Assembly: GCA_016926735.1 (NCBI GenBank)
Contig: JAFGOA010000068.1
Location: 1 to 22,212, forward strand
DNA from: Promethearchaeota archaeon
Lineage (GTDB): Archaea; Asgardarchaeota; Lokiarchaeia; Sigyniarchaeales; SOKP01
DNA: 22,212 nucleotides
Direction: 5' to 3'
Shown here one piece after another: positions 1,176 to 10,617 of this stretch. Position 1 is the stretch's first letter; every line of letters begins with the position of its first letter. Position numbers and translations under genes: made by a program. The notes below the pieces were generated by a model. The model made no database searches and was not told the origin of the DNA. It saw only the letters and a program-made list of their open reading frames with translations.

Positions 1176-2720
1176 ATGGATAATACATATTTAGAGTACC
1201 AATCATCAAGAATAAGCGATATAGGAAGAAAATCAATACTAACAAAATCTAAAATAAAAAAGACTAATACATCTAAATTGGTATTTCAATTAAAGATGTG
1301 GAATCTCTTAAATAAATTACCGCTTTCTATAATTCTTCATAAATTTAATAAAAATTGTTTTTACTGTAAGCGTAGTTATGCTGAAACAATTATTGATTAT
1401 TATATTTCAAAAAAAATAGAATGTAAGAAATGCAGATTTGCTGCAAAGTTTAAATATCCCCTTGTATCATTTATTTTTCAATTAATCTCTAAAGGTCTTG
1501 GTATGCCAAGCGACTCTTTTAAAAAAATAATCAGAGAGAATAAACCTTTAAAAAGATTGATTTTAAATTATATGGAAGGTCTTGGAAGATATGGATTAAC
1601 AATTCCACAAATTCCTGGAGGACCAATAGTTACGTTATGGTCTATCACAGATAAATGTAATTTGAGATGTAAACATTGTTTTGTTCATCAAAATCAAATA
1701 AAGGATGAAATAAGTTTTTTTGATGCTTGCAAAGTAATTAATCAATTATATGAAGCAAAAAACTTTTCTTTAGGATTTTCAGGAGGAGAAGCATTACTAA
1801 AAAAAGATATTTTTAAGATAATGAAATATGCCTCTGATAAAGGAATGCATATCGCTCTTGCTTCCAACGGAACATTGATTACTAAAGAAGTTGCTTATAA
1901 AATAAAAGAAGCGGGTGTTAAATATGTTCAAATAAGTATTGATGGATTAGAAGAGGTACATAATCAAATCAGAGGAAAAGGAGTTTTTAAAAAAGCAATA
2001 AGAGGTATTAAAAATTGTCTTGAAGTTGGATTATATGTCAGTATGGACGTTGTAATTACCAAACTGAATTTAAATCAACTTGAAGACTTAATAAAATTAG
2101 CAAAATCTTTGAAAGTCCCTAAATTTGAAATCCTTGATTTTATTCCTTCTGGAAAAGCCTCCAAACATGCAAATATTGCATTGAGTCCATTAGAAATTGA
2201 ACATTTAGGATTAAAATTATGCAGATCATGGGAAAAATTAATTGAATCTGATTATCCCTTCTCTTTATCATATAAAAACCCTCATTTCGCGAGAATTGTA
2301 TCTCAAAATATTCCAAATTTACAACTTATGCCCTTTTTTAAAGGTTTATTTCCTAAAAATGCTTTAAAATTCTTTAATTTTTCAAAGAGGCTTTCCAAAG
2401 GAATTCATGATGATCAATCTCCATTTGGACCCTTTATGACGGGATGTGAACCGGGATTTTATGTAATTCATATTGACCCATCACTGAATATAAATCCATG
2501 TCCATTTAATCCTATCTATTTAGGAAATCTTAAAAAAAATCATATTAAGGATATATGGGATAAATCTTCTGTTTTAAATACTTATAGAAAATTGAAATTT
2601 GATAAGAAATGTGGAAAATGTATGTATAAGATAGTATGTGGAGGATGTCGAGCAAAAGCATATCTTGCATTTAATACACATTCAGCACCAGATCCTTCTT
2701 GTATTTTAAATTGCAGATAA
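1176..2720 (+). CDS. Radical SAM protein with C-terminal SPASM domain and long N-terminal extension (possible GMGT synthase-like family)
   Basis: CNLRCKHC (CxxxCxxC), SGGE, SNGT, QISIDG; SPASM cysteines GCEPG..PC..CGKC..VCGGCRAKA..DPSC. The N-terminal extension carries CFYC and CKKC. The subfamily call is inference. Confidence 0.9.
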   Translation: MDNTYLEYQSSRISDIGRKSILTKSKIKKTNTSKLVFQLKMWNLLNKLPLSIILHKFNKNCFYCKRSYAETIIDYYISKKIECKKCRFAAKFKYPLVSFIFQLISKGLGMPSDSFKKIIRENKPLKRLILNYMEGLGRYGLTIPQIPGGPIVTLWSITDKCNLRCKHCFVHQNQIKDEISFFDACKVINQLYEAKNFSLGFSGGEALLKKDIFKIMKYASDKGMHIALASNGTLITKEVAYKIKEAGVKYVQISIDGLEEVHNQIRGKGVFKKAIRGIKNCLEVGLYVSMDVVITKLNLNQLEDLIKLAKSLKVPKFEILDFIPSGKASKHANIALSPLEIEHLGLKLCRSWEKLIESDYPFSLSYKNPHFARIVSQNIPNLQLMPFFKGLFPKNALKFFNFSKRLSKGIHDDQSPFGPFMTGCEPGFYVIHIDPSLNINPCPFNPIYLGNLKKNHIKDIWDKSSVLNTYRKLKFDKKCGKCMYKIVCGGCRAKAYLAFNTHSAPDPSCILNCR

Positions 2721-3399: not shown

Positions 3400-4293
3400 T
3401 TATTTAAAATCTAAATTTCTCTTGGTCCTATTATTTGGATTAGCATAACAATAAAGACAACTATGATAACATATCCAATCTTTTCCATAGCCTCCAATAT
3501 CTTTACTTTTAGTACAACCACAATATTCTCTCTGACCTGGATCTTTAGCTGTAGATAAAGGGATATTCCATAATTTTGATAGAAAATTTCCATCAACACA
3601 ATGAGCTTGTTGTATACCATCAATTTTTAATAAATTTGGATTACAACAAGCAAATAAAGTTATATTATATTTTTTTGCAATTTTAACAAGCTCTTCCGTT
3701 ATTTTTTTCATCTCCTTATCGCTTATTTTATAATAATTAAGTGAAAATCTTTTGAATCTATTTTCTACTTTCCTATAATAAGTAGCGAATGAAATAGTAC
3801 ATTTAGTGATTCCAAAATTAGAAAATTGGTAAACAATTTCTTTGAAATCTTTAAGATTATTTAACAATATATTATTACTTCGGTAAAACACAATTGGATC
3901 AAATCTCCACATAATATGATCAGGAGAACTAATTTCAATCATTTCCTTCAATTGAGAAATACTTTCTTGAAGAGAAGGTGTATTTGGTTCTAAAATCCTA
4001 TCTACAGAATTTCTTGTAAATTGAAAATATACAGGAATTATCCTTTGTGAACTAAATAGGGTATTTTGAGAATAATTTAATAGTATTTCCCATTTATTCA
4101 AAAAAGGCTTAAAATTTTTTGACCATAATACAAATCCAGCAATATCATTTGGTTTAAGAGACACTGTATACACTTTTTTATTATATGGATTTTGAACATT
4201 TATATACTCTTTTTCAATCGCATCTTGAAATTTATCCATATAAAAAGCAGGTCCATCAGTTCTACGACTGAAACTAATAATTTGCTTATTCAT
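3400..4293 (-). CDS. DUF1848 family protein (C-terminal radical-SAM-like Cys cluster)
   Basis: N-terminal IISFSRRTDGPAFY, LWSKN, WRFDPI, and C-terminal KDPGQREYCGC..DIG..CYHSCLYCYAN, all typical of DUF1848. Confidence 0.9.
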   Translation of the reverse strand: MNKQIISFSRRTDGPAFYMDKFQDAIEKEYINVQNPYNKKVYTVSLKPNDIAGFVLWSKNFKPFLNKWEILLNYSQNTLFSSQRIIPVYFQFTRNSVDRILEPNTPSLQESISQLKEMIEISSPDHIMWRFDPIVFYRSNNILLNNLKDFKEIVYQFSNFGITKCTISFATYYRKVENRFKRFSLNYYKISDKEMKKITEELVKIAKKYNITLFACCNPNLLKIDGIQQAHCVDGNFLSKLWNIPLSTAKDPGQREYCGCTKSKDIGGYGKDWICYHSCLYCYANPNNRTKRNLDFK

Positions 4294-4318: not shown

Positions 4319-6052
4319 CTATAATAATCTTATTAGTGACCCAAATCCATATAATGTAGTAAGTGCTGAGCAAAAAAAGATTTGGATTATTATAAATGAA
4401 CTTATTAAAACTGAACTAATTTTACCAGTTTTATTATAAATTAAAGAGTTCATTAACATTACAACGAGACTTATAAGAAAAGCTGCCATAAAAGCAACTA
4501 TAAGAAATAATCCATAAGCTAAAAACATTAAAATAAGCATATGTATAATACCCATAGCGTTGACAATTACTAATTTAATGGCTGAAGATTTTATAAAATT
4601 TAACCTATCAAATACTACTTTTCTATAATATAATTCAAATACCAAATAAAAAGGATAAACACCATATGCCAATATAAAGGATATTATATTGTTAGGGGAA
4701 AAATAGGCAAATGGAAATGAAATAGAAAATGAGAAATATAAAATTAAAAAAATAGTAACTGAAATTATAGGATAAAGAATAACATTCTTTTCGAAGTGAG
4801 AAGATATTATATGTTTCAAATTTAATTTCGAAAAGTAATTTTTTTTTTTCCCATTTGATTTAACCCTTCCAATAATATAATTAATAGAACTTAGAACAAA
4901 AATTAATAATATTATCGCTACGGGTGCAATAAAAAGACCAGGTATTCCAAGTTCTCTAATAAAAAACACCCAAATCATTATAAATAAAATATATGATGTT
5001 AATATCGTAAATGAATTTTGAATACCATGAACAATTCTGTTATGCTTGCTTTCTTTTAATATTGTTGATTCTTCTTTTTCTATCTTAAAATATTGAGACA
5101 TTTTAATCATTACAGCAATGGTAACTAAAAATATTGAAAATAATGTTAAAAATAACAATACATAAACTTGAAGGTAAGTTAAAGATATAGGACCATTAAT
5201 TGAATCAGAACTAAAAAAAGATATTTCGAACCAATTTATTGTTTTTATTAAAACTTCATCTGCTAAAAGGAAGTGCGGACCACCTAAGATATGATATGTA
5301 ATATTTAACAATGTACAGTTGGTTAAATTATGAGCAACCAAAGCATTTTTTTTATATGGTACAGTATTATCATAAATCGAATGAATTACTAAAAGATTTT
5401 GAGGATTGGTTGAATTTATTATTTTTGCAGGTATATAGCTCATAAATAGATTACTTTCACTTATTCCTAATAATTGTGCTGAAAAGTTGACTACACCTGC
5501 CCAGGTTACTGTTGCTTTAAATCTATTATCTAATGCACTTGTCATCAAAGCAACCATTCCTCCAAATGAATGCCCAATAATTCCAATTTGAGAATTATTA
5601 ATTCTATTATACTCAGGAAGAGTTTCTATTTTATCTAATAATCTCGAACAATCTTGAGCAATGGCAGGTACATTTGTTCGGTTCTGATACTCATTATAAT
5701 TGATATCCAATAGTTCACCAGTACTTTCACCACTCCCTCTATAATCAACACTAACAACAAAAAATCCTCTTTTGGTTAGTTCTAAAGGAATTCTAGGATC
5801 CAAATCTTTTTGGCTACCAAGTCCATGAAGGAAAAAAATTAAAGGGTGTTGTTCTTGAAAATCCAAACTCTTCTTTGGAATATATAAATTAGCGTTTATA
5901 GTAGCTCCAGATGAGGAACATTGTATTTTTTTATAATTTATATAACTATTAAATCTATGATAGTATGAAAAACTAATGGAAAATATAAGTAGAAATATTG
6001 AGAAGATTAAAAAAAGATTTTTTCTTTTAGAATGATTATTTTTATTATTCAA
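4319..6052 (-). CDS. Membrane-anchored alpha/beta-hydrolase (S9-like serine hydrolase) fused to a multi-pass C-terminal membrane domain
   Basis: N-terminal hydrophobic anchor, HGLG oxyanion region, DYRGSGES, nucleophile elbow GHSFGG, candidate Asp (DNTV) and His (GGPH); about 7-8 hydrophobic helices after residue ~290. TTG start is uncertain. Confidence 0.8.
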   Translation of the reverse strand: MNNKNNHSKRKNLFLIFSIFLLIFSISFSYYHRFNSYINYKKIQCSSSGATINANLYIPKKSLDFQEQHPLIFFLHGLGSQKDLDPRIPLELTKRGFFVVSVDYRGSGESTGELLDINYNEYQNRTNVPAIAQDCSRLLDKIETLPEYNRINNSQIGIIGHSFGGMVALMTSALDNRFKATVTWAGVVNFSAQLLGISESNLFMSYIPAKIINSTNPQNLLVIHSIYDNTVPYKKNALVAHNLTNCTLLNITYHILGGPHFLLADEVLIKTINWFEISFFSSDSINGPISLTYLQVYVLLFLTLFSIFLVTIAVMIKMSQYFKIEKEESTILKESKHNRIVHGIQNSFTILTSYILFIMIWVFFIRELGIPGLFIAPVAIILLIFVLSSINYIIGRVKSNGKKKNYFSKLNLKHIISSHFEKNVILYPIISVTIFLILYFSFSISFPFAYFSPNNIISFILAYGVYPFYLVFELYYRKVVFDRLNFIKSSAIKLVIVNAMGIIHMLILMFLAYGLFLIVAFMAAFLISLVVMLMNSLIYNKTGKISSVLISSFIIIQIFFCSALTTLYGFGSLIRLL

Positions 6053-6136
6053 AATGATTCTATTATCCTTTATGTTCCTTTATTTTATAGTATTATAGAT
6101 ATTTGTTAAATCTAATTATTTTTATTATTGTACTTT

Positions 6137-6382
6137 TTATTTTAAATCTCTCTCGGGATTTAGATCAATATTTTTGAAAATTTCTTCTATTTTATCAATA
6201 CTAATTAGATTTGTTTGATATAATTCCCGAATGAATTTATATGCAGCACATTCATATTCTTTTTCCCAATATTCTTGATCTTCATGATAAAAATTGCATT
6301 TATGACAAATAGTGTTTATTAATTGTCTATTTAATGGACTTATATCATCTTCATTTCTTATAATTTCATGTTCCTTAACCAA
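6137..6382 (-). CDS. Small Cys-containing hypothetical protein (CxxC-FY...EC motif), likely accessory to the upstream radical SAM enzyme
   Basis: 81 aa with TTG start preceded by GAGGT (gaggtatgaaaaTTG); motif ICHKCNFY..ECAAY; 43 bp downstream of the radical SAM gene on the same strand. Confidence 0.7.
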   Translation of the reverse strand: MVKEHEIIRNEDDISPLNRQLINTICHKCNFYHEDQEYWEKEYECAAYKFIRELYQTNLISIDKIEEIFKNIDLNPERDLK

Positions 6383-6425
6383 TTTTCATACCTCTTTAAT
6401 AGGAATTATTAATTGATAATATTTA

Positions 6426-7703
6426 TTATTTAATTATTTTTCCAAATTGATAACACTTAAAAGAATCTATTCCTTTTATACTATTCGTTTGTTTATAAGC
6501 TCTATATCTGCATCCTCCCCTACAATTATCAAGATATTCACATTCTATTTCAGCACATTTAAGTTCTTTAATATTCCAATTTAATTCCTTTTGAATGATT
6601 TCCCAAGCGTTTTTAAGATTAAGATCAAATACATTTCCTAAATTATATTCTGAAAAAAAACCACACTTAGTTATTTTTCCTTTTACATCAATAGCCATCA
6701 TATATGGACCACATGCATAATTTATTTCTTCTCCTTCTGAAGAAGATTCATAAATTACCCCCCATCCATAATTTTTAAGTATTTCACCCCCATCTTTAAA
6801 AGATATTTCATATTTTTCTCTGATATCTTTTGGAGTTTTATCATCGAATGTAGGAATATCGATTGACCAATTCTTAACTGTTCCAAGTGAAGTTATTAAT
6901 TTATAAATTTCATCAAACTCGCCCAGATTTTGTTTATGAATCATAGTGTTTATAGAAACACTGATGTTATTATCCATAAGGATTTTTATTCCTTTGATTG
7001 TATCTCGAAAACAATCTGAATTCCTAAAATCATTATGAGTACTTTCTAAACCATCAATACTTACAAATACTTCGAAATAATTTTCTTTCAAAAGGTCTAA
7101 AATTATTTGATCTTGTTCGTGGATAAGAGTACCATTAGTTAAAAGTACTTTTTGAAGAGGAAGATCTTTTAATTCTTCTAATAGATTCTTAAGTTTAGAG
7201 TATAGAAAAGGTTCTCCTCCGGTTAAAATAATCTTAATACCTTGTAATTCATAAAATTCTTTTATTAATTTAAATAAAACCTCCAATTCCATATTAATCG
7301 GATTTTTATCAGTTATATAACAATGTTTGCAAGTTAAATTACACTTTTCTGTAATATTTATCATTATATTCTTGAGATAAGGAGGATTTAAAGGATTTTT
7401 TTTTGGCAAGGTTATATGTTCATTAGTTATTATAGAAGGATCAGTTATCATTGTAGAATAAAATTGAATAACACCTATTTCATTATATTTTTCAAGTGCC
7501 TTTTTAATTTCAGATTCCTTATTTGAAGGGAATGAATTAATAATTTCTCTATTAGTTTTTTTTCCATTAATCAAGGATAATAAAGCATATGCCTCGTTAT
7601 CGATGATATATGACTCATCATTTTTTAAATCGTATATATTATAATCTTTATATTTCCTTAAAACTATATTCTTAAGAACATAAGGGAATAGTTCTAAATT
7701 CAT
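6426..7703 (-). CDS. Radical SAM/SPASM peptide maturase candidate with N-terminal PqqD/RRE-like domain
   Basis: CNLTCKHC, TGGEP, TNGT, VSIDG; SPASM cysteines ACGP..TKC..CAEIEC..NCRGGCRYRA..KC. The N-terminal ~85 aa (IYDLKNDESYIIDNEAYALLSLINGKKTNREII..KKALEKYNEIGVI) show the beta-strands plus winged-helix pattern of PqqD/RRE domains. Confidence 0.88.
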   Translation of the reverse strand: MNLELFPYVLKNIVLRKYKDYNIYDLKNDESYIIDNEAYALLSLINGKKTNREIINSFPSNKESEIKKALEKYNEIGVIQFYSTMITDPSIITNEHITLPKKNPLNPPYLKNIMINITEKCNLTCKHCYITDKNPINMELEVLFKLIKEFYELQGIKIILTGGEPFLYSKLKNLLEELKDLPLQKVLLTNGTLIHEQDQIILDLLKENYFEVFVSIDGLESTHNDFRNSDCFRDTIKGIKILMDNNISVSINTMIHKQNLGEFDEIYKLITSLGTVKNWSIDIPTFDDKTPKDIREKYEISFKDGGEILKNYGWGVIYESSSEGEEINYACGPYMMAIDVKGKITKCGFFSEYNLGNVFDLNLKNAWEIIQKELNWNIKELKCAEIECEYLDNCRGGCRYRAYKQTNSIKGIDSFKCYQFGKIIK

Positions 7704-7722
7704 ATTTAAAGGTAAATTCTTG

Positions 7723-7733
7723 ATATATAAAAA
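7723..7733 (-). promoter_or_regulatory. Putative TATA box for the radical SAM gene (leaderless-type spacing)
   Basis: The minus strand reads TTTTTATATAT about 20-30 nt upstream of the ATG at 7703. Weak evidence given the AT-rich background. Confidence 0.3.
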
Positions 7734-7896
7734 TGTTATCTTAATTTATTAAAAGGATGATAAATATATATCTAAGACGTCAAGACATTTCTTTTATGAT
7801 TTTTAAAATCAATTTCAGTAAAATTAATTAGATTTATAAAGGGATAAGATTTAAATTTGAAAGATAATCATATTAGATTAATTATAAAAAGAAAGA

Positions 7897-8022
7897 TTAG
7901 TAAACACCTAATAAGTCCAATTCTAACAGTTCCTGATATCTTTTCTTAGAATTAGCTTTTTTATATTCTCTAAGTATTTCCCAATTATTTCTACTGATTT
8001 CTATATTTTTATTGTTTTTCAT
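7897..8022 (-). CDS. Small 41-aa basic protein, possibly ribbon-helix-helix-like
   Basis: MKNNKNIEISRNNWEILREYKKANSKKRYQELLELDLLGVY. The ATG at 8022 is preceded by AAAGTGATTGAA (GTGA RBS-like) and is preferred over the track's TTG start at 8088. Confidence 0.45.
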   Translation of the reverse strand: MKNNKNIEISRNNWEILREYKKANSKKRYQELLELDLLGVY

Positions 8023-8126
8023 TTCAATCACTTTTTTTTCCTTAATAGTAAAAAATGCCTTTATGAATATAATATTTTTATAGACCAATTTTTAAAGAAT
8101 TAGTAAAAGTAAAAATAATAGGATTT

Positions 8127-8134
8127 AAAAAAAA
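8127..8134 (-). terminator. Possible oligo-T terminator downstream of the Cys-rich peptide gene
   Basis: T8 run on the minus strand starting 24 nt after the stop codon. Such runs are common in this genome. Confidence 0.25.
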
Positions 8135-8157
8135 GATTATATAAAATTAATTATTAT

Positions 8158-8277
8158 TTAGCAACCGCCGCCACATTTGCAAATACAACCACCACCACAC
8201 TTGCAACTGTTTGAGATGCATCCTCCTCCACATTTACAAGCAGCACTGGTAGTTTTTTCTTTTTTTACAATTTTCAT
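8158..8277 (-). CDS. 39-aa Cys/Gly-rich peptide with three CKCGGGC repeats; candidate radical-SAM RiPP precursor (or metallothionein-like peptide)
   Basis: Hand translation: MKIVKKEKTTSAACKCGGGCISNSCKCGGGCICKCGGGC-stop(TAA). ATG preceded by GTGAATAAA. The repeat copies differ only at synonymous third positions, and the core is locally GC-rich in an AT-rich gap. Confidence 0.9.
   Translation of the reverse strand: MKIVKKEKTTSAACKCGGGCISNSCKCGGGCICKCGGGC
8161..8238 (-). repeat. Three 21-nt coding repeats of CKCGGGC (8218-8238, 8185-8205, 8161-8181)
   Basis: TGTAAATGTGGAGGAGGATGC / TGCAAGTGTGGTGGTGGTTGT / TGCAAATGTGGCGGCGGTTGC on the minus strand. Confidence 0.95.
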
Positions 8278-8351
8278 TTTATTCACATTAAAATTTTAGT
8301 GTGTTAATATTTAATTATTAGAATATATTTTTAAATTCTGCGCTTATTAGA

Positions 8352-8391
8352 AATAATATGAAAAAATCATATAATAATATGAAGAAATCAT
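8352..8391. promoter_or_regulatory. Tandem 19-bp direct repeat (21-bp period), each copy containing the palindrome ATGA-N5-TCAT; putative operator
   Basis: AATAATATGAAAAAATCAT (8352-8370) and AATAATATGAAGAAATCAT (8373-8391), 18/19 identical, in the divergent region between the peptide gene and mtnA. Confidence 0.5.
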
Positions 8392-8548
8392 TACATATTA
8401 CTGAGATTTTTAAATATGAGAAAATTAGATAAAAGTATGAAAAGTATTAAAATAAATTATTCAAAAAATCTTTTATAAGGTTTTTTTTAGATTGAAGTAT
8501 TCATTAATTATAATTACAATTTAAATTAACATAAATAGTATAAATAAA

Positions 8549-9583
8549 ATGATTCCATCGATAGAATGGGTAAATCAAAATAATCGATCTATAGTCAAAA
8601 TGATTGATCAGACGGTTCTTCCCCATGAATTAAAATTTTTAGAGTTATCTGATTATAGAGATGTTGCAAAATCAATAAAAGTAATGAATATTAGAGGTGC
8701 TCCGGCAATAGGAGTTGCTGCTGCTATGGGAATGGCATTAGCAGCATTAGAATATAAAAATTTATCAAAAGATGATTTCCTAAAAAAAATGAAAGATGCT
8801 GCTAAAACGATTAGAATGACACGTCCAACAGCTTCTAATTTATTTTGGGCGTTGAATCGGATATTAGAAGTAGTTGATAAATCAATTGGTACTGTTAATG
8901 AAATTTGTGAAGAAGTTGTTGAAGAAGCAATATTAATGGCTCAGGAAGACATAATAGTTAATAAAAATATAGGAAAACATGGAGCAGAATTAATTAAAGA
9001 TGGAGAAACTATTTTAACTCATTGTAATGCAGGTTCTCTCGCAACTGTGCAATATGGAACTGCCTTAGCTCCTATTCGGACAGCTATTGAGCAGGGAAAA
9101 AAAATATCAGTTATAGCTGACGAGACCAGACCAAGATTACAAGGAGCAAGATTAACTGCCTTTGAATTAAATTATGATAATATACCTGTAAAAGTAATTT
9201 CTGATACTTCTTCAGGATTATTAATGAAATTAGGAAAAATAAATAAGATAATCGTGGGTACGGATAGAGTCACATCTGATGCTGTTTTTAATAAAATCGG
9301 TACGTATCTTGTAGCTTTAGCAGCAAAAGACAATAATATTCCATTCTATGTAGCAGCCCCCACTTCGACCTTATCCCTTGAAGAAACGATAGATGATGTC
9401 GAAATTGAACAACGAGAGGATAGTGAGGTATCATGTGTGTTAGGTAAAATACGAATTGTCCCTGAAGGTGTAGAATGTTTAAATTATGCTTTTGATATTA
9501 CAACATTTGAACTTGTCACAGGTATCATAACAGAAGATGGTGTATTTACAGCTGAAAAACTACTTGAAAAATACAGAAAATAA
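8549..9583 (+). CDS. mtnA: S-methyl-5-thioribose-1-phosphate isomerase (eIF2B-alpha-like family)
   Basis: DQTVLP, IRGAPAIG, TRPTASNL, THCNAGSLAT, DETRPRLQGARLT, GTDR, NKIGTY, NYAFDIT. Confidence 0.92.
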   Translation: MIPSIEWVNQNNRSIVKMIDQTVLPHELKFLELSDYRDVAKSIKVMNIRGAPAIGVAAAMGMALAALEYKNLSKDDFLKKMKDAAKTIRMTRPTASNLFWALNRILEVVDKSIGTVNEICEEVVEEAILMAQEDIIVNKNIGKHGAELIKDGETILTHCNAGSLATVQYGTALAPIRTAIEQGKKISVIADETRPRLQGARLTAFELNYDNIPVKVISDTSSGLLMKLGKINKIIVGTDRVTSDAVFNKIGTYLVALAAKDNNIPFYVAAPTSTLSLEETIDDVEIEQREDSEVSCVLGKIRIVPEGVECLNYAFDITTFELVTGIITEDGVFTAEKLLEKYRK

Positions 9584-9612: not shown

Positions 9613-10617
9613 CTAATTTATCAATAAATCTCCATTAAAGATTTTATTCAAAATAAATTTTAAACTCTGTAGATTTCTAGTTTTACTTAATTCAGTTCTA
9701 TATACAGTAGAATTCTGAATATATTTTGTGTGCCATATAGAATTTCTTTTTAACTCTTTAAATTGGAATTCTTCTATGCTTGATTTTAAAGATACTTTAG
9801 ATGCAAAATTTTTAAGAATTTTCTCATATAATACTAAATTTTCTTTCATTACTTTTAATGATCTATTTGGAGAGTTATAGATACCTTTTGAAAGATAATC
9901 TTCAATTTGAGAAAATATTTGGGGATTCCCCATAGAAGCTCTTCCTATCATGATTCCGTCTACTTTTGTATAATCCATCATATGTTTAGCTTTTATTGGA
10001 GAATTAATATCTCCATTTCCAATAACAGGAATAATTATACTTTCTTTGATTTTTTTCAACGTATCCAAATCAAGAGTTTCTGGATCAAATCTATCTTTTA
10101 CTTTTCTTGCATGGATAGTTAAAAATTCCAAATTTGAATTATTGATAATTGCTGAAAATTTTTTGATATCCATTAATTTTTGGAAACCTAAACGAGTTTT
10201 TAAAGAGACTGGTTTTGAAGAGTATTTAACAGCAGAATTAATTATTTTTTCTAATGATTCCAAATCTTTTATCAAAAATCCTCCTTGTTCTGCACTAAGA
10301 GATCTTGAAGAAGCACAACCTGCATTTATATTAATAACATCATGATTATAACTATTAAGAAAATCTAAAGAATTCTTGAAATCATTAGGATGATTCCCGA
10401 TCAATTGGATAGAAATAGGTTTTTCTTTTTCAATTAGGGCTAGATTATAATCAATTTCTTTCTGATTTTTAATGATTCTTTGAGTATATATCATTGGAAC
10501 CTCTACTAGTCCAATTTTTTGAAATGATCTACAGAATCGTCTATAAGGCGCAGTTGTAACATTTAATAAAGGTGCTAAGAATAGCGTATTACTTAAAGAT
10601 AATGTACCTAGTTTCAT
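9613..10617 (-). CDS. dus: tRNA-dihydrouridine synthase (Dus family, DusB-like)
   Basis: LFLAP, PISIQLIG, ININAGC, PVSLKTRLG, TIHAR, IPVIGNGDI, DGIMIGRASMGNP. Confidence 0.9.
   Translation of the reverse strand: MKLGTLSLSNTLFLAPLLNVTTAPYRRFCRSFQKIGLVEVPMIYTQRIIKNQKEIDYNLALIEKEKPISIQLIGNHPNDFKNSLDFLNSYNHDVININAGCASSRSLSAEQGGFLIKDLESLEKIINSAVKYSSKPVSLKTRLGFQKLMDIKKFSAIINNSNLEFLTIHARKVKDRFDPETLDLDTLKKIKESIIIPVIGNGDINSPIKAKHMMDYTKVDGIMIGRASMGNPQIFSQIEDYLSKGIYNSPNRSLKVMKENLVLYEKILKNFASKVSLKSSIEEFQFKELKRNSIWHTKYIQNSTVYRTELSKTRNLQSLKFILNKIFNGDLLIN

Follow-up and report, generated by a model that had tools for sequence, protein, structure and literature searches.

Genes for Cys-rich peptides are known to occur beside those of enzymes that join an RRE, a radical-SAM core and a SPASM domain. 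Members of the radical SAM superfamily share a CxxxCxxC cluster motif and a partial TIM-barrel core, and SPASM is a C-terminal domain with seven or eight cysteines for two auxiliary Fe-S clusters. The RRE, or PqqD-like domain, is a winged helix of three strands and three helices to which the leader is bound as an added strand. In sactipeptides the Cys sulfur is linked to the alpha carbon of the acceptor, in ranthipeptides to its beta or gamma carbon, and the known ranthipeptide families each retain, to our knowledge, one acceptor residue, for instance Asp, Thr or Asn. For the archaeal enzyme CrpC, PMC13692751 describes a seven-Cys SPASM domain whose arrangement leaves one iron free to hold a substrate Cys.

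Here, we describe a candidate system of this kind in the window, the whole stretch of 22,212 nt from a Promethearchaeota archaeon that was analysed. Four co-directional minus-strand ORFs, as listed by the initial annotation, are all present where it had placed them (Table 1). Judged from their conservation, the peptide, the enzyme and the 81-aa protein probably are one conserved maturation system, and this system is a family rather than a one-off. We give a probability of about 60% to the reading that enzyme and peptide are a maturase and its substrate, with a modification centred on Cys; taken on its own, the part of this reading that makes the peptide the substrate of the enzyme is very probable.

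Table 1. Features of the candidate system in the window.
Feature	Position	Strand	Description	Basis
Maturase	6426..7703	minus	425 aa; RRE-like, radical-SAM and SPASM domains	Pfam, AF2, Foldseek, alignments
Radical-SAM core	6849..7376	minus	residues ~110-285; C121-x3-C125-x2-C128	Pfam
SPASM domain	6444..6731	minus	residues ~325-420	seven invariant Cys
N-terminal RRE-like winged-helix domain	7419..7703	minus	residues 1-95; net acidic; predicted leader cleft	AF2, profile alignment, co-fold
Precursor peptide gene	8158..8277	minus	39 aa and stop	ORF, repeat codons, homologues
Run of eight T	8127..8134	minus	24 nt past the peptide stop codon	read from the sequence
Accessory protein	6137..6382	minus	81 aa; TTG start; C26-x2-C29...C45 invariant	conserved near the enzyme
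Short ORF	7897..8019	minus	40 aa from ATG (database copy listed with 41 aa)	self-match only

The enzyme was found to have 92 homologue clusters with 48-68% identity among the 120 of 1023 matches listed. All 14 organism-named close homologues among these matches belong to Lokiarchaeota, Promethearchaeota, Promethearchaeia or Hodarchaeota, so that the host is indeed Asgard-like, as had been suspected. In the phylogenetic tree the enzyme family forms a clade (SH-aLRT 99), within which 26 Asgard rows group together (SH-aLRT 93), as do nine rows from Nitrospirota loci (P0104 and P0105 included) and three rows of Actinomycetota; this points to inheritance mostly within phyla and lineages. A second rSAM/SPASM gene of the window (1176..2720) groups with the outgroup rSAM/SPASM enzymes and not with the maturase family, and was left out.

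Pfam Radical_SAM (PF04055) matches the enzyme with an E value of 5.6e-22 and 79.1 bits, against a cut-off of 29.5, and C121, C125 and C128 are invariant in 29/29 aligned sequences, which places it in the radical SAM superfamily. Seven further cysteines (C331, C347, C383, C388, C394, C398 and C417) are invariant in 29 aligned homologues; their pattern, C-x10-G-x4-C followed by C-x4-C-x5-C-x3-C and a last C, is that of the SPASM subfamily. Pfam SPASM (PF13186) reaches 14.8 bits for the window enzyme against a cut-off of 21.5 and is matched by six of the 29 members, and a profile alignment spans the SPASM domains of anSME and TigE, the extra cluster-I Cys of anSME being absent from the family domain in the same alignment. 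The AF2 model of the enzyme (pLDDT 90.7) gives full-length fold matches to SPASM enzymes: Foldseek against the PDB places SuiB first (E 1e-17, TMq 0.65), then CteB, SkfB and TigE, all of them RRE-bearing RiPP maturases. By these cysteines, the Pfam match and the fold matches, the enzyme is the rSAM-SPASM protein with CxxxCxxC motif that the initial annotation had proposed.

Its N-terminus had been called PqqD-like. Pfam PqqD is matched by 0/29 family members at E<=10, with only weak winged-helix matches; profile alignments, on the other hand, cover the N-terminal domains of TigE (query 24-417), CteB (21-243) and SuiB (9-395), and the strands (13-17, 21-25, 30-34) and helices (36-42, 51-55, 60-75) of the AF2 model fit the RRE fold. 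By fold and profile alignment the domain appears RRE-like; its assignment to the PqqD family of Pfam is not upheld. No NCBIfam model is above its cut-off for the enzyme, the best being NirJ with 105.3 bits against 515, and the outcome is the same for four bacterial or archaeal homologues. By these cut-offs the enzyme does not belong to the maturase families AlbA (66.6 bits against 850), PapB (85.5 against 340), StsB (80.8 against 625), SkfB, ScmE/F or QhpD-like.

The peptide, MKIVKKEKTTSAACKCGGGCISNSCKCGGGCICKCGGGC, consists of a basic leader of 13 residues, MKIVKKEKTTSAA (net charge +3), and a core in which three CKCGGGC units alternate with the spacers ISNS and I. An in-frame GTG at 8286 would give an alternative peptide of 42 aa; conservation in the family favours the ATG as the probable start. 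The three units show 14 pairwise nucleotide differences, 14 of them synonymous and none non-synonymous, and the GC content of the ORF is 40.8%, compared with 25.3% for the window. It is the sole markedly Cys-rich short ORF in 22 kb, with nine Cys against at most five in the other six listed. The protein collection holds two close homologues from two other samples: P0121 with three CKCGGGC units, and P0122 with two CKCGGDC units and one GKCGGDC. Because of the all-synonymous repeat differences, the high GC, the Cys richness and these homologues, the ORF is taken to be more than chance, and the selection on its codons indicates, indirectly, that it is probably translated. A chance frame over a G-rich repeat, encoding nothing, could be argued from its shortness, a size seldom reported by gene callers, and from an antisense ORF on the plus strand (8177..8299) that overlaps it; against the synonymous differences in precisely this frame, the homologues in two other samples and the single-core forms with Shine-Dalgarno-like motifs in 15 loci (see below), we consider this extremely improbable.

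The window peptide matches no Pfam or NCBIfam family at E<=1, the metallothioneins of Pfam included, and P0121, P0122 and four peptides of 20-21 aa likewise match no NCBIfam family at this threshold, in keeping with the earlier impression that the core is not that of a characterised RiPP family. The best score of an Atlas search with the window peptide, 0.76, is not meaningful. The eight-T run behind the gene may be an archaeal oligo-T terminator, in which case the peptide gene would be its own transcription unit. Rfam shows no family in 5900..8700. For the short ORF between peptide gene and enzyme, included in the system by the initial annotation, there is no support as a gene: it matches itself alone in a collection of 5.8 billion proteins, ORFs of such length are expected by chance in DNA so AT-rich, and it was dropped.

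A contig scan with two generic Cys motifs returned at least 19 loci of distant full-length relatives of the enzyme (the family loci) and 61 whose rSAM/SPASM enzymes are of other kinds, which served as controls. None of the loci returned is from Asgard, and the close Asgard homologues were covered as protein sequences. An ORF of 20-21 aa adjoins the enzyme in 15/19 family loci and in 0/61 control loci, the family loci being spread over five phyla (Nitrospirota, Actinomycetota, Thermodesulfobacteriota, Rokuibacteriota and Methanobacteriota). The short Cys peptides that had been expected beside homologous maturases are thus found, also in bacteria and with a single CxCxxxC, so that the system is not specifically archaeal as had been supposed. 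All 15 ORFs have exactly 13 residues ahead of the first Cys and a C-terminal CxCxxxC; the window peptide has the same leader length, with the core in three copies. Twelve lie downstream of the enzyme, with gaps of 13-252 bp, and three upstream, with gaps of 328-475 bp; 14/15 are on the same strand as the enzyme. The alignment of 16 peptides shows no variation at C14, C16 and C20 and very little at I3, K5 and K15, K15 being the sole conserved non-Cys core residue (E in L019). A loose purine-rich pattern precedes the start in 15/15 ORFs; its end lies 7-9 nt from the start in 12 of them and 15-16 nt away in the other three, and a full GGAGG was seen by eye in 12/15 within the 25 nt upstream shown. 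The clearest comparison of peptide genes, L007 with L013, gives seven synonymous and no non-synonymous differences over 20 codons. No such peptide lies within 900 bp of the enzyme in four of the 19 family loci (L002, L004, L016 and L018), the contig of L002 ending 114 bp past the enzyme. The peptide matches (on contigs of 6309 and 569 bp) share no contig with the 120 of 1023 enzyme matches listed, and the peptide-enzyme pairing in Asgard rests on this window and the two orphan peptides P0121 and P0122.

The 81-aa CxxC..C protein of the initial annotation is likewise present and conserved. In 11/19 family loci, compared with 0/61 control loci, a homologue of it is encoded next to the enzyme or forms part of it, and five further representatives (P0130, P0138, P0146, P0153 and P0154) carry it as an N-terminal fusion. 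It was not found beside the enzyme in eight of the 19 loci, mostly of Nitrospirota; L012 and L017 are without upstream flank. The 81-aa protein has no Pfam or NCBIfam match, the Atlas clusters that match it are all labelled "hypothetical protein", and its AF2 model, with a pLDDT of only 69.5, gives 0 matches in the PDB at E<=0.001 (Foldseek). Its family is nameless.

Co-folding of peptide and enzyme bears on the proposal that the enzyme takes the MKIVKK leader. Leader residues 1-17 are predicted to lie in the N-terminal cleft, with a score of 0.80 compared with 0.01 for the best of three controls; the mark applied is reached by 58/80 solved complexes and 2/110 mismatched pairs, a rough guide only, as own alignments were used here and small molecules were included. 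At least 45% of the contacts agree between runs, and the partner pLDDT is at least 51. The modelled contacts involve enzyme residues 29-38, 41 and 65-76; those of lowest error join leader residues 2-6 to enzyme residues 30-38 and 69-76 and include I3, K5 and D35, the last being invariant in the enzyme family. The charges are opposite throughout, +3 to +7 for the leader in 16/16 peptides and -1 to -15 for the N-terminal domain in 29/29 enzymes. Since the PDB matches of the enzyme include solved complexes of like kind, SuiB with SuiA (5v1t) and ChlB with its leader (9gm3), the pass may reflect likeness and not the binding of this pair. These results also bear on the possibility that the peptide is an unmodified, metallothionein-like metal binder and that the enzyme acts elsewhere, for example on the 81-aa protein, the adjacency being regulatory or coincidental. 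Nine Cys in 26 core residues with a CxC/CxxxC pattern would suit this reading, as would the conservation of the 81-aa protein itself beside the enzyme. An adjacency in 15/19 loci of five phyla against 0/61, a fixed leader length, a co-fold placement of the leader in the RRE-like cleft for which no control exceeds 0.01, and the absence of any metallothionein or other Pfam family at E<=1 for the window peptide speak against it, and the fusion of the 81-aa protein to the enzyme in some lineages suits a subunit, not a substrate; we regard it as very improbable.

For the preferred maturase-substrate pair, the following course of events may be proposed. The translated 39-aa peptide would dock with its basic leader as an extra strand on strand 30-34 and helix 60-75 of the acidic RRE-like domain, as in the co-fold model, and the core would thread to the radical-SAM site, where SAM cleavage would yield a 5'-deoxyadenosyl radical able to abstract hydrogen from one residue of the core. 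The thiolate of a core Cys, held on the three-Cys auxiliary cluster I of the SPASM domain, would then, as the analogy with CteB and CrpC suggests, close a thioether between Cys S and carbon. One such event would be expected per CxCxxxC unit, that is, three in the Asgard peptide and one in the bacterial 20-mers. The three-Cys protein, being fused to the enzyme in some bacteria, is viewed as a detachable enzyme domain, which may serve to bind a metal or a cluster, or to present the peptide.

Thioether crosslinking as the chemistry, which is drawn from this analogy, falls somewhat short of even odds. Counting against it, no fixed acceptor is conserved, as K15 is the only non-Cys core residue kept and is E in L019. 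The links from Cys to neighbouring Gly, Lys or Cys suggested by the initial annotation are one conjecture, and a different Cys chemistry may apply. The same partners could convert Cys into a heterocycle or another product without crosslinks, such as the thiooxazole of SbtM, and thereby a chelator of copper or other soft metals. The three invariant Cys, with spacers that vary, resemble a set of ligands rather than a pair of donor and acceptor, and the NCBIfam model of SbtM ("thio(seleno)oxazole modification radical SAM maturase") weakly matches bacterial homologues (53-71 bits against 350); the SbtMa peptide carries thiooxazole motifs, like the copper-binding bufferins (PMC12538549). The SbtM score is, however, far under the cut-off and is matched or exceeded by those of many other rSAM/SPASM models, and copper-handling neighbours are lacking. 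This chemistry is held to be unlikely.

Around the family loci no protease, exporter or immunity gene is conserved within about 4 kb; the other neighbours of the system are housekeeping genes, which are not common to different phyla. A hydrolase or membrane protein just downstream in the window (4319..6052) was considered as leader peptidase by its position only, has no counterpart in the 19 loci and was rejected. The missing genes argue against a secreted product of sactibiotic type and, together with the housekeeping surroundings, let us expect a small thiol-rich peptide for metal binding or redox reactions, kept in the cell and not secreted as an antibiotic. This intracellular role is inferred from missing transport genes inside about 4 kb only, and the odds that the product stays in the cell seem evenly balanced.

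Alternatively, the peptide might give rise to a small redox cofactor, much as PqqA does with PqqE and MftA with MftC; the enzyme would take the first step and unlinked genes would finish the product. The very short precursor (20-21 aa) with its C-terminal core, an enzyme composed of an RRE-like domain and rSAM/SPASM, inheritance mostly within phyla, housekeeping surroundings free of export genes and weak NCBIfam matches to the maturase models of mycofactocin and PQQ would all agree with this. No conserved peptidase, oxidase or dependent dehydrogenase is found nearby, however, the scores remain low (71.7 bits against 265 for the mycofactocin rSAM; 60.1 against 381 for PqqE with L006), and the triplicated Asgard core is a better fit to a peptide modified repeat by repeat than to a single excised cofactor. 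We therefore hold a cofactor precursor to be quite improbable.

With 13 leader and seven core residues, the precursor of this family is among the shortest known to us. New aspects are the conservation of leader and core across Bacteria and Archaea, a nameless three-Cys accessory domain, in some cases part of the enzyme itself, and a system free of export, protease and immunity genes within about 4 kb. The pattern provides a simple, testable rule for spotting unannotated 20-aa genes, and three genes with a 39-aa substrate are small enough for direct reconstitution. A product acting in the cell as a metal or redox peptide would mean that Asgard archaea and widespread anaerobes of sediments have one more cofactor-like molecule of peptide origin in their physiology. 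A full-text literature search, core strings included, gave no paper on this family; an unnamed cluster in the "bioinformatic atlas" of rSAM RiPPs (JACS 2022) could correspond to it. In PMC12144867 and PMC13635244, archaeal "ranthipeptide/sactipeptide" clusters appear as generic counts only.

Compared with described systems, the family resembles the CteB/SCIFF-type maturases in having an RRE-like N-terminal domain together with radical-SAM and SPASM domains, and an adjacent gene for a short Cys-rich peptide. Two CteB structures (5why, 5wgg; E 5e-16 to 2e-15) rank among the best fold matches, and the profile alignment reaches the N-terminal domain of CteB, but identity is 17-18% and related maturase models (PapB, StsB, AlbA) are far under their cut-offs; the 20-21-aa bacterial precursor, the lack of a fixed acceptor, the extra three-Cys protein and the absence of a peptide model match also set the family apart. 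SuiB gives the best fold match of all (E 1e-17 and TMq 0.65 over ~460 columns, which take in the N-terminal RRE), at an identity of 16-18%; streptide contains a Lys-Trp crosslink, and as the core here is without Trp, this chemistry cannot apply. As in PapB/freyrasin, a single enzyme would work on several copies of a short Cys motif within one precursor; PapB matches weakly over residues 111-408 (85.5 bits against a cut-off of 340), and its motif pairs Cys with Asp, which is absent from the window core. The ACGX-repeat system (TIGR04340) likewise has an rSAM/SPASM enzyme named for a neighbouring short repeat peptide containing Cys and Gly, and matches the enzyme weakly; with 74.9 bits against 400 the enzyme is not a member, and a match of the peptide model was not seen.

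CrpC/CrpA of Methanococcus voltae, as described in PMC13692751, is an archaeal RRE-rSAM-SPASM system whose SPASM domain has seven Cys, like that of the window enzyme. According to the same text its thioethers are placed in a Cys motif that recurs behind a leader-like N-terminal part, similar to what is proposed here, and a metal role is suspected too. CrpA differs in its size (~29 kDa), its 17-residue motif repeated ten times and its CxxQ/D acceptors (PMC13692751), and CrpC belongs to TIGR04463, which is absent from the best 25 of 84 NCBIfam matches of the window enzyme.

PqqE/PqqA and MftC/MftA resemble the present family in that the precursor is short (~20-30 aa) and has its core at the C-terminus, an RRE (here an RRE-like domain) accompanies the rSAM/SPASM enzyme, inheritance is mostly lineage-wise and the product is intracellular, as is expected here; the family differs in its Cys-only core, and scores far under the cut-offs and the lack of conserved tailoring genes at the family loci place it outside PQQ and mycofactocin. 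A tentative and, taken as a whole, rather doubtful extension of these likenesses would see an ancient, undescribed cross-domain system, inherited mostly by lineage in bacteria that are anaerobes and, with a triplicated core, in Asgard archaea. From a Cys-tripod peptide of 20 residues it would make a cofactor-like molecule with a housekeeping role inside the cell, which binds a metal or cluster or is redox-active, and it would rank beside PQQ and mycofactocin and not beside antibiotics.

Comparison across loci shows that the 39-aa candidate precursor peptide, the 425-aa predicted maturase and the 81-aa putative accessory protein constitute a conserved three-gene module. Reading of the sequence recovered all four minus-strand ORFs that the initial annotation had placed at 6137..8277. 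One of them, the short ORF between peptide and enzyme, matched only itself in a collection of 5.8 billion proteins and is not counted as a gene. The peptide (MKIVKKEKTTSAACKCGGGCISNSCKCGGGCICKCGGGC) joins a 13-residue basic leader to three CKCGGGC units of 21 nt. These units show 14 pairwise nucleotide differences, all 14 synonymous, the pattern expected under selection on the translated peptide, and this comparison shows selection acting on the codons of the putative precursor. The ORF has a GC content of 40.8% against 25.3% for the window and, with nine cysteines compared to at most five in the other six short ORFs listed, is the sole markedly Cys-rich short ORF among those listed in the 22 kb. 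A run of eight T residues, 24 nt past its stop codon, may be a terminator; an Rfam search of the region around the system gave no match. A 40-aa antisense ORF overlapping the peptide gene mirrors its G-rich repeats and has no support of its own.

Coordinates of the features discussed, in the window and in related loci (L handles) that carry distant relatives of the enzyme
Feature	Sequence	Positions	Strand	Remark
Second radical-SAM/SPASM protein, 514 aa	window	1176..2720	+	
DUF1848 protein (Pfam 4.5e-70)	window	3400..4293	-	between two radical-SAM genes
577-aa protein	window	4319..6052	-	85 bp past the 81-aa gene, same strand
81-aa protein	window	6137..6382	-	
Enzyme, 425 aa	window	6426..7703	-	
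Short ORF	window	7897..8019	-	not counted as gene
Peptide, 39 aa	window	8158..8277	-	
Antisense ORF, 40 aa	window	8177..8299	+	overlaps the peptide gene
MtnA	window	8549..9583		ordinary annotated gene
Dihydrouridine synthase	window	9613..10617		ordinary annotated gene
Glycogen-phosphorylase-like gene, methyltransferases, CYTH protein, RsmB-like genes	window			ordinary annotated genes
Radical-SAM/SPASM gene without RRE	L012	1947..2957		
Radical-SAM/SPASM gene without RRE	L016	1761..2762		
Masked stretch	L019	5318..5467		

The proposed pairing of the enzyme with a short Cys-rich peptide extends to its distant homologues. A genome scan yielded at least 19 distant full-length relatives (27-36% identity) and at least 61 loci with other radical-SAM/SPASM enzymes. 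The 19 listed relatives come from Nitrospirota, Actinomycetota, Thermodesulfobacteriota, Rokuibacteriota and Methanobacteriota; there was no Asgard locus among the matches listed, and the peptide counts therefore cover other phyla. ORFs of 20-21 aa (for example MKIRKVRRVARGLCKCKQTC and MTIKKVTRKMATTCKCKSSC) neighbour the enzyme in 15 of the 19 listed family loci and in none of the 61 listed controls, all with exactly 13 residues ahead of the first cysteine and a C-terminal CxCxxxC. The gap is 13-252 bp for the twelve ORFs downstream of the enzyme and 328-475 bp for the three upstream of it; all but that of L001 share the enzyme's strand. All 15 are preceded by a loose purine-rich pattern ending 7-9 nt (12 ORFs) or 15-16 nt (three) from the start, with a full GGAGG, judged by eye, in the 25 nt upstream shown for 12. 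The clearest peptide comparison, L007 with L013, shows 7 synonymous and no non-synonymous codon changes out of 20 codons. Summed over all pairs, synonymous and non-synonymous differences number 16 and 4 for Actinomycetota, 116 and 97 for Nitrospirota. An alignment of these peptides with that of the window and with P0121 and P0122, its two close homologues, shows no variation at C14, C16 and C20 and almost none at I3, K5 and K15; by this alignment the putative archaeal precursor has the same leader, with the core in triplicate. P0122 (42 aa, on a 569-bp contig) carries CKCGGDC units, the middle one reading GKCGGDC with its first cysteine gone, so that either one of the nine cysteines may be dispensable or the middle repeat may be decaying. 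Within 900 bp of the enzyme, such an ORF was not found in L002, whose contig stops 114 bp past the enzyme, nor in L004, L016 and L018. Directly downstream of the enzyme of L019, a masked stretch translates to a run of X and leaves this locus partly unreadable.

The enzyme itself showed an RRE-like/radical-SAM/SPASM architecture. It matches Pfam Radical_SAM (5.6e-22) with the CxxxCxxC motif at C121, C125 and C128, and an alignment of 29 homologues revealed seven more invariant cysteines in a SPASM-type pattern; the Pfam SPASM model stayed under its cut-off on the window's enzyme. Among the best 25 of 84 NCBIfam matches no model came near its curated cut-off (top NirJ, 105 bits versus 515), and the same was true of four distant homologues. 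A confident AlphaFold2 model built from the family alignment (pLDDT 90.7) best matches, among PDB folds, RiPP maturases that carry an RRE: SuiB (E 1e-17, TMq 0.65, about 460 columns), CteB, SkfB and TigE. Residues 1-95 form strands followed by three helices in this model, and the family profile alignment extends across the N-terminal domains of these maturases, namely TigE, CteB and SuiB. The "PqqD-like" N-terminus of the initial annotation thus probably holds for the fold but not for the sequence family, as Pfam PqqD matched none of 29 members. The profile alignment also revealed that the second cluster-I cysteine of anSME is absent from the family, which makes this a seven-Cys SPASM domain, a type that, according to the Discussion of the CrpC paper (PMC13692751), frees one iron for a substrate cysteine.

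Enzyme and peptide were co-folded, each with its own alignment, together with SAM and three 4Fe-4S clusters. The pair scored 0.80, the best control 0.01; 58 of 80 solved complexes attain the 0.80 mark, as do 2 of 110 mismatched pairs. These counts apply here only roughly, given the custom alignments and the small molecules present. Contact agreement in the runs was at least 45% and partner pLDDT at least 51. Residues 1-17 of the leader contact enzyme residues 29-38, 41 and 65-76, the N-terminal strand-and-helix cleft, as well as residues 112, 159, 278-282, 309-320, 332 and 335 near the active site. The lowest-error contacts join I3 and K5 of the leader to D35, all three among the best-conserved positions of their respective partners; all 16 peptides have a basic leader, and all 29 enzymes an acidic N-terminal domain. 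Solved leader complexes exist for the fold matches SuiB and ChlB, so the co-fold result may partly reflect likeness. The model supports, rather than shows, binding of the leader by the enzyme.

Homologues of the 81-aa protein adjoin the enzyme and keep the invariant cysteines C26-x2-C29...C45. By six-frame profile search this type of protein is adjacent or fused in 11 of 19 listed family loci (L005 being weak, and L012 and L017 having no upstream flank) versus 0 of 61 listed controls. It is duplicated in L010 and L014, and the duplicated form is joined to the N-terminus of the enzyme in five further homologues (P0130, P0138, P0146, P0153 and P0154), which marks it as a probable detachable enzyme domain and not a substrate. 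Pfam, NCBIfam and a fold search with its model (pLDDT 69.5) gave no match; the clusters returned by an Atlas search, which come from Promethearchaeota, Actinomycetota and Thermodesulfobacteriota, are all annotated "hypothetical protein".

Among the matches listed, close relatives of the enzyme form at least 92 clusters (48-68% identity), the 14 with organism names all being Lokiarchaeota, Promethearchaeota, Promethearchaeia or Hodarchaeota. Relatives at 34-37% identity form a second tier that includes Helarchaeota and Jordarchaeum, and those at about 33% a third, which is bacterial. A protein library clustered at 50% identity contributed 58 representatives with E<=1e-30. In a maximum-likelihood tree of 60 rows, excluding the truncated L010 and L012 enzymes, the 51 rows of the family make up a clade (SH-aLRT 99, stem length 1.19) separate from nine other radical-SAM/SPASM enzymes. 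Its 26 Asgard rows form one group (SH-aLRT 93), with the Loki/Hod type as a subclade (support 100); nine Nitrospirota-locus rows, including P0104 and P0105, cluster, as do three Actinomycetota rows. This grouping by lineage suggests inheritance mostly within lineages.

The remaining neighbours vary between phyla and are housekeeping genes, for example glycogen phosphorylase, GHMP kinase, PRPP synthetase, tRNA synthetases and regulators; those of the window include MtnA and a dihydrouridine synthase. In the Nitrospirota loci L003, L008 and L017 the order enzyme, peptide, TPR protein, GHMP kinase is shared, followed by PRPP synthetase in L003 and L008, and the system there is in a stable housekeeping neighbourhood. 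The RRE-less radical-SAM/SPASM genes near the family enzyme in L012 and L016 (333-336 aa) are 34% identical to each other (E 6e-58); L016 also belongs to the four loci in which no 20-aa peptide was found. In the window, the 577-aa protein combines an alpha/beta-hydrolase domain (weak Peptidase_S9 match, 2e-12) with a membrane anchor at its N-terminus and a long, polytopic membrane tail. Its gene could be co-transcribed with the system, and none of the 19 listed related loci contains a counterpart. The 514-aa radical-SAM/SPASM protein bears an N-terminal extension of about 150 aa with CxxC...CxxC. Its nearest NCBIfam models, AhbD (207 bits), NirJ2 and TIGR04053, are all under cut-offs, it falls among the outgroup enzymes in the tree, outside the peptide-linked family, and no Cys-rich short ORF was seen adjoining it.

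By analogy with CteB and CrpC, closure of a thioether by the enzyme is the favoured chemistry. The leader would dock on the RRE-like domain, as the co-fold predicts, a core cysteine would ligate auxiliary cluster I at its open iron, the 5'-deoxyadenosyl radical would take a hydrogen from a neighbouring residue, and one thioether would form per CxCxxxC unit. The sole conserved non-Cys core residue is K15, replaced by E in one peptide; without a fixed acceptor residue, conversion of cysteine to a heterocycle, as reported for SbtM peptides in the available text of PMC12538549, stays a live rival to thioether formation. No recurring peptidase, ABC exporter or immunity gene was found among family-locus neighbours within about 4 kb. 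Together with the housekeeping setting, this leads us to expect that the product is a thiol-rich peptide that stays inside the cell and has a metal-related or redox function, the boldest version being a peptide cofactor resembling PQQ or mycofactocin.

The system belongs to none of the curated maturase or precursor families tested (Pfam, NCBIfam). Full-text literature searches, core strings included, found no description, though a large radical-SAM RiPP atlas or supplements might list the family unnamed. Archaeal "ranthipeptide/sactipeptide" clusters appear as counts alone in the accessible portions of two surveys (PMC12144867, PMC13635244). The nearest published archaeal case is CrpC/CrpA, which, as far as the consulted sections of PMC13692751 describe it, is a different family: CrpC falls in TIGR04463 and its substrate is a 29-kDa protein. 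In its predicted mode of operation, the system resembles an RRE-dependent radical-SAM/SPASM RiPP pathway.
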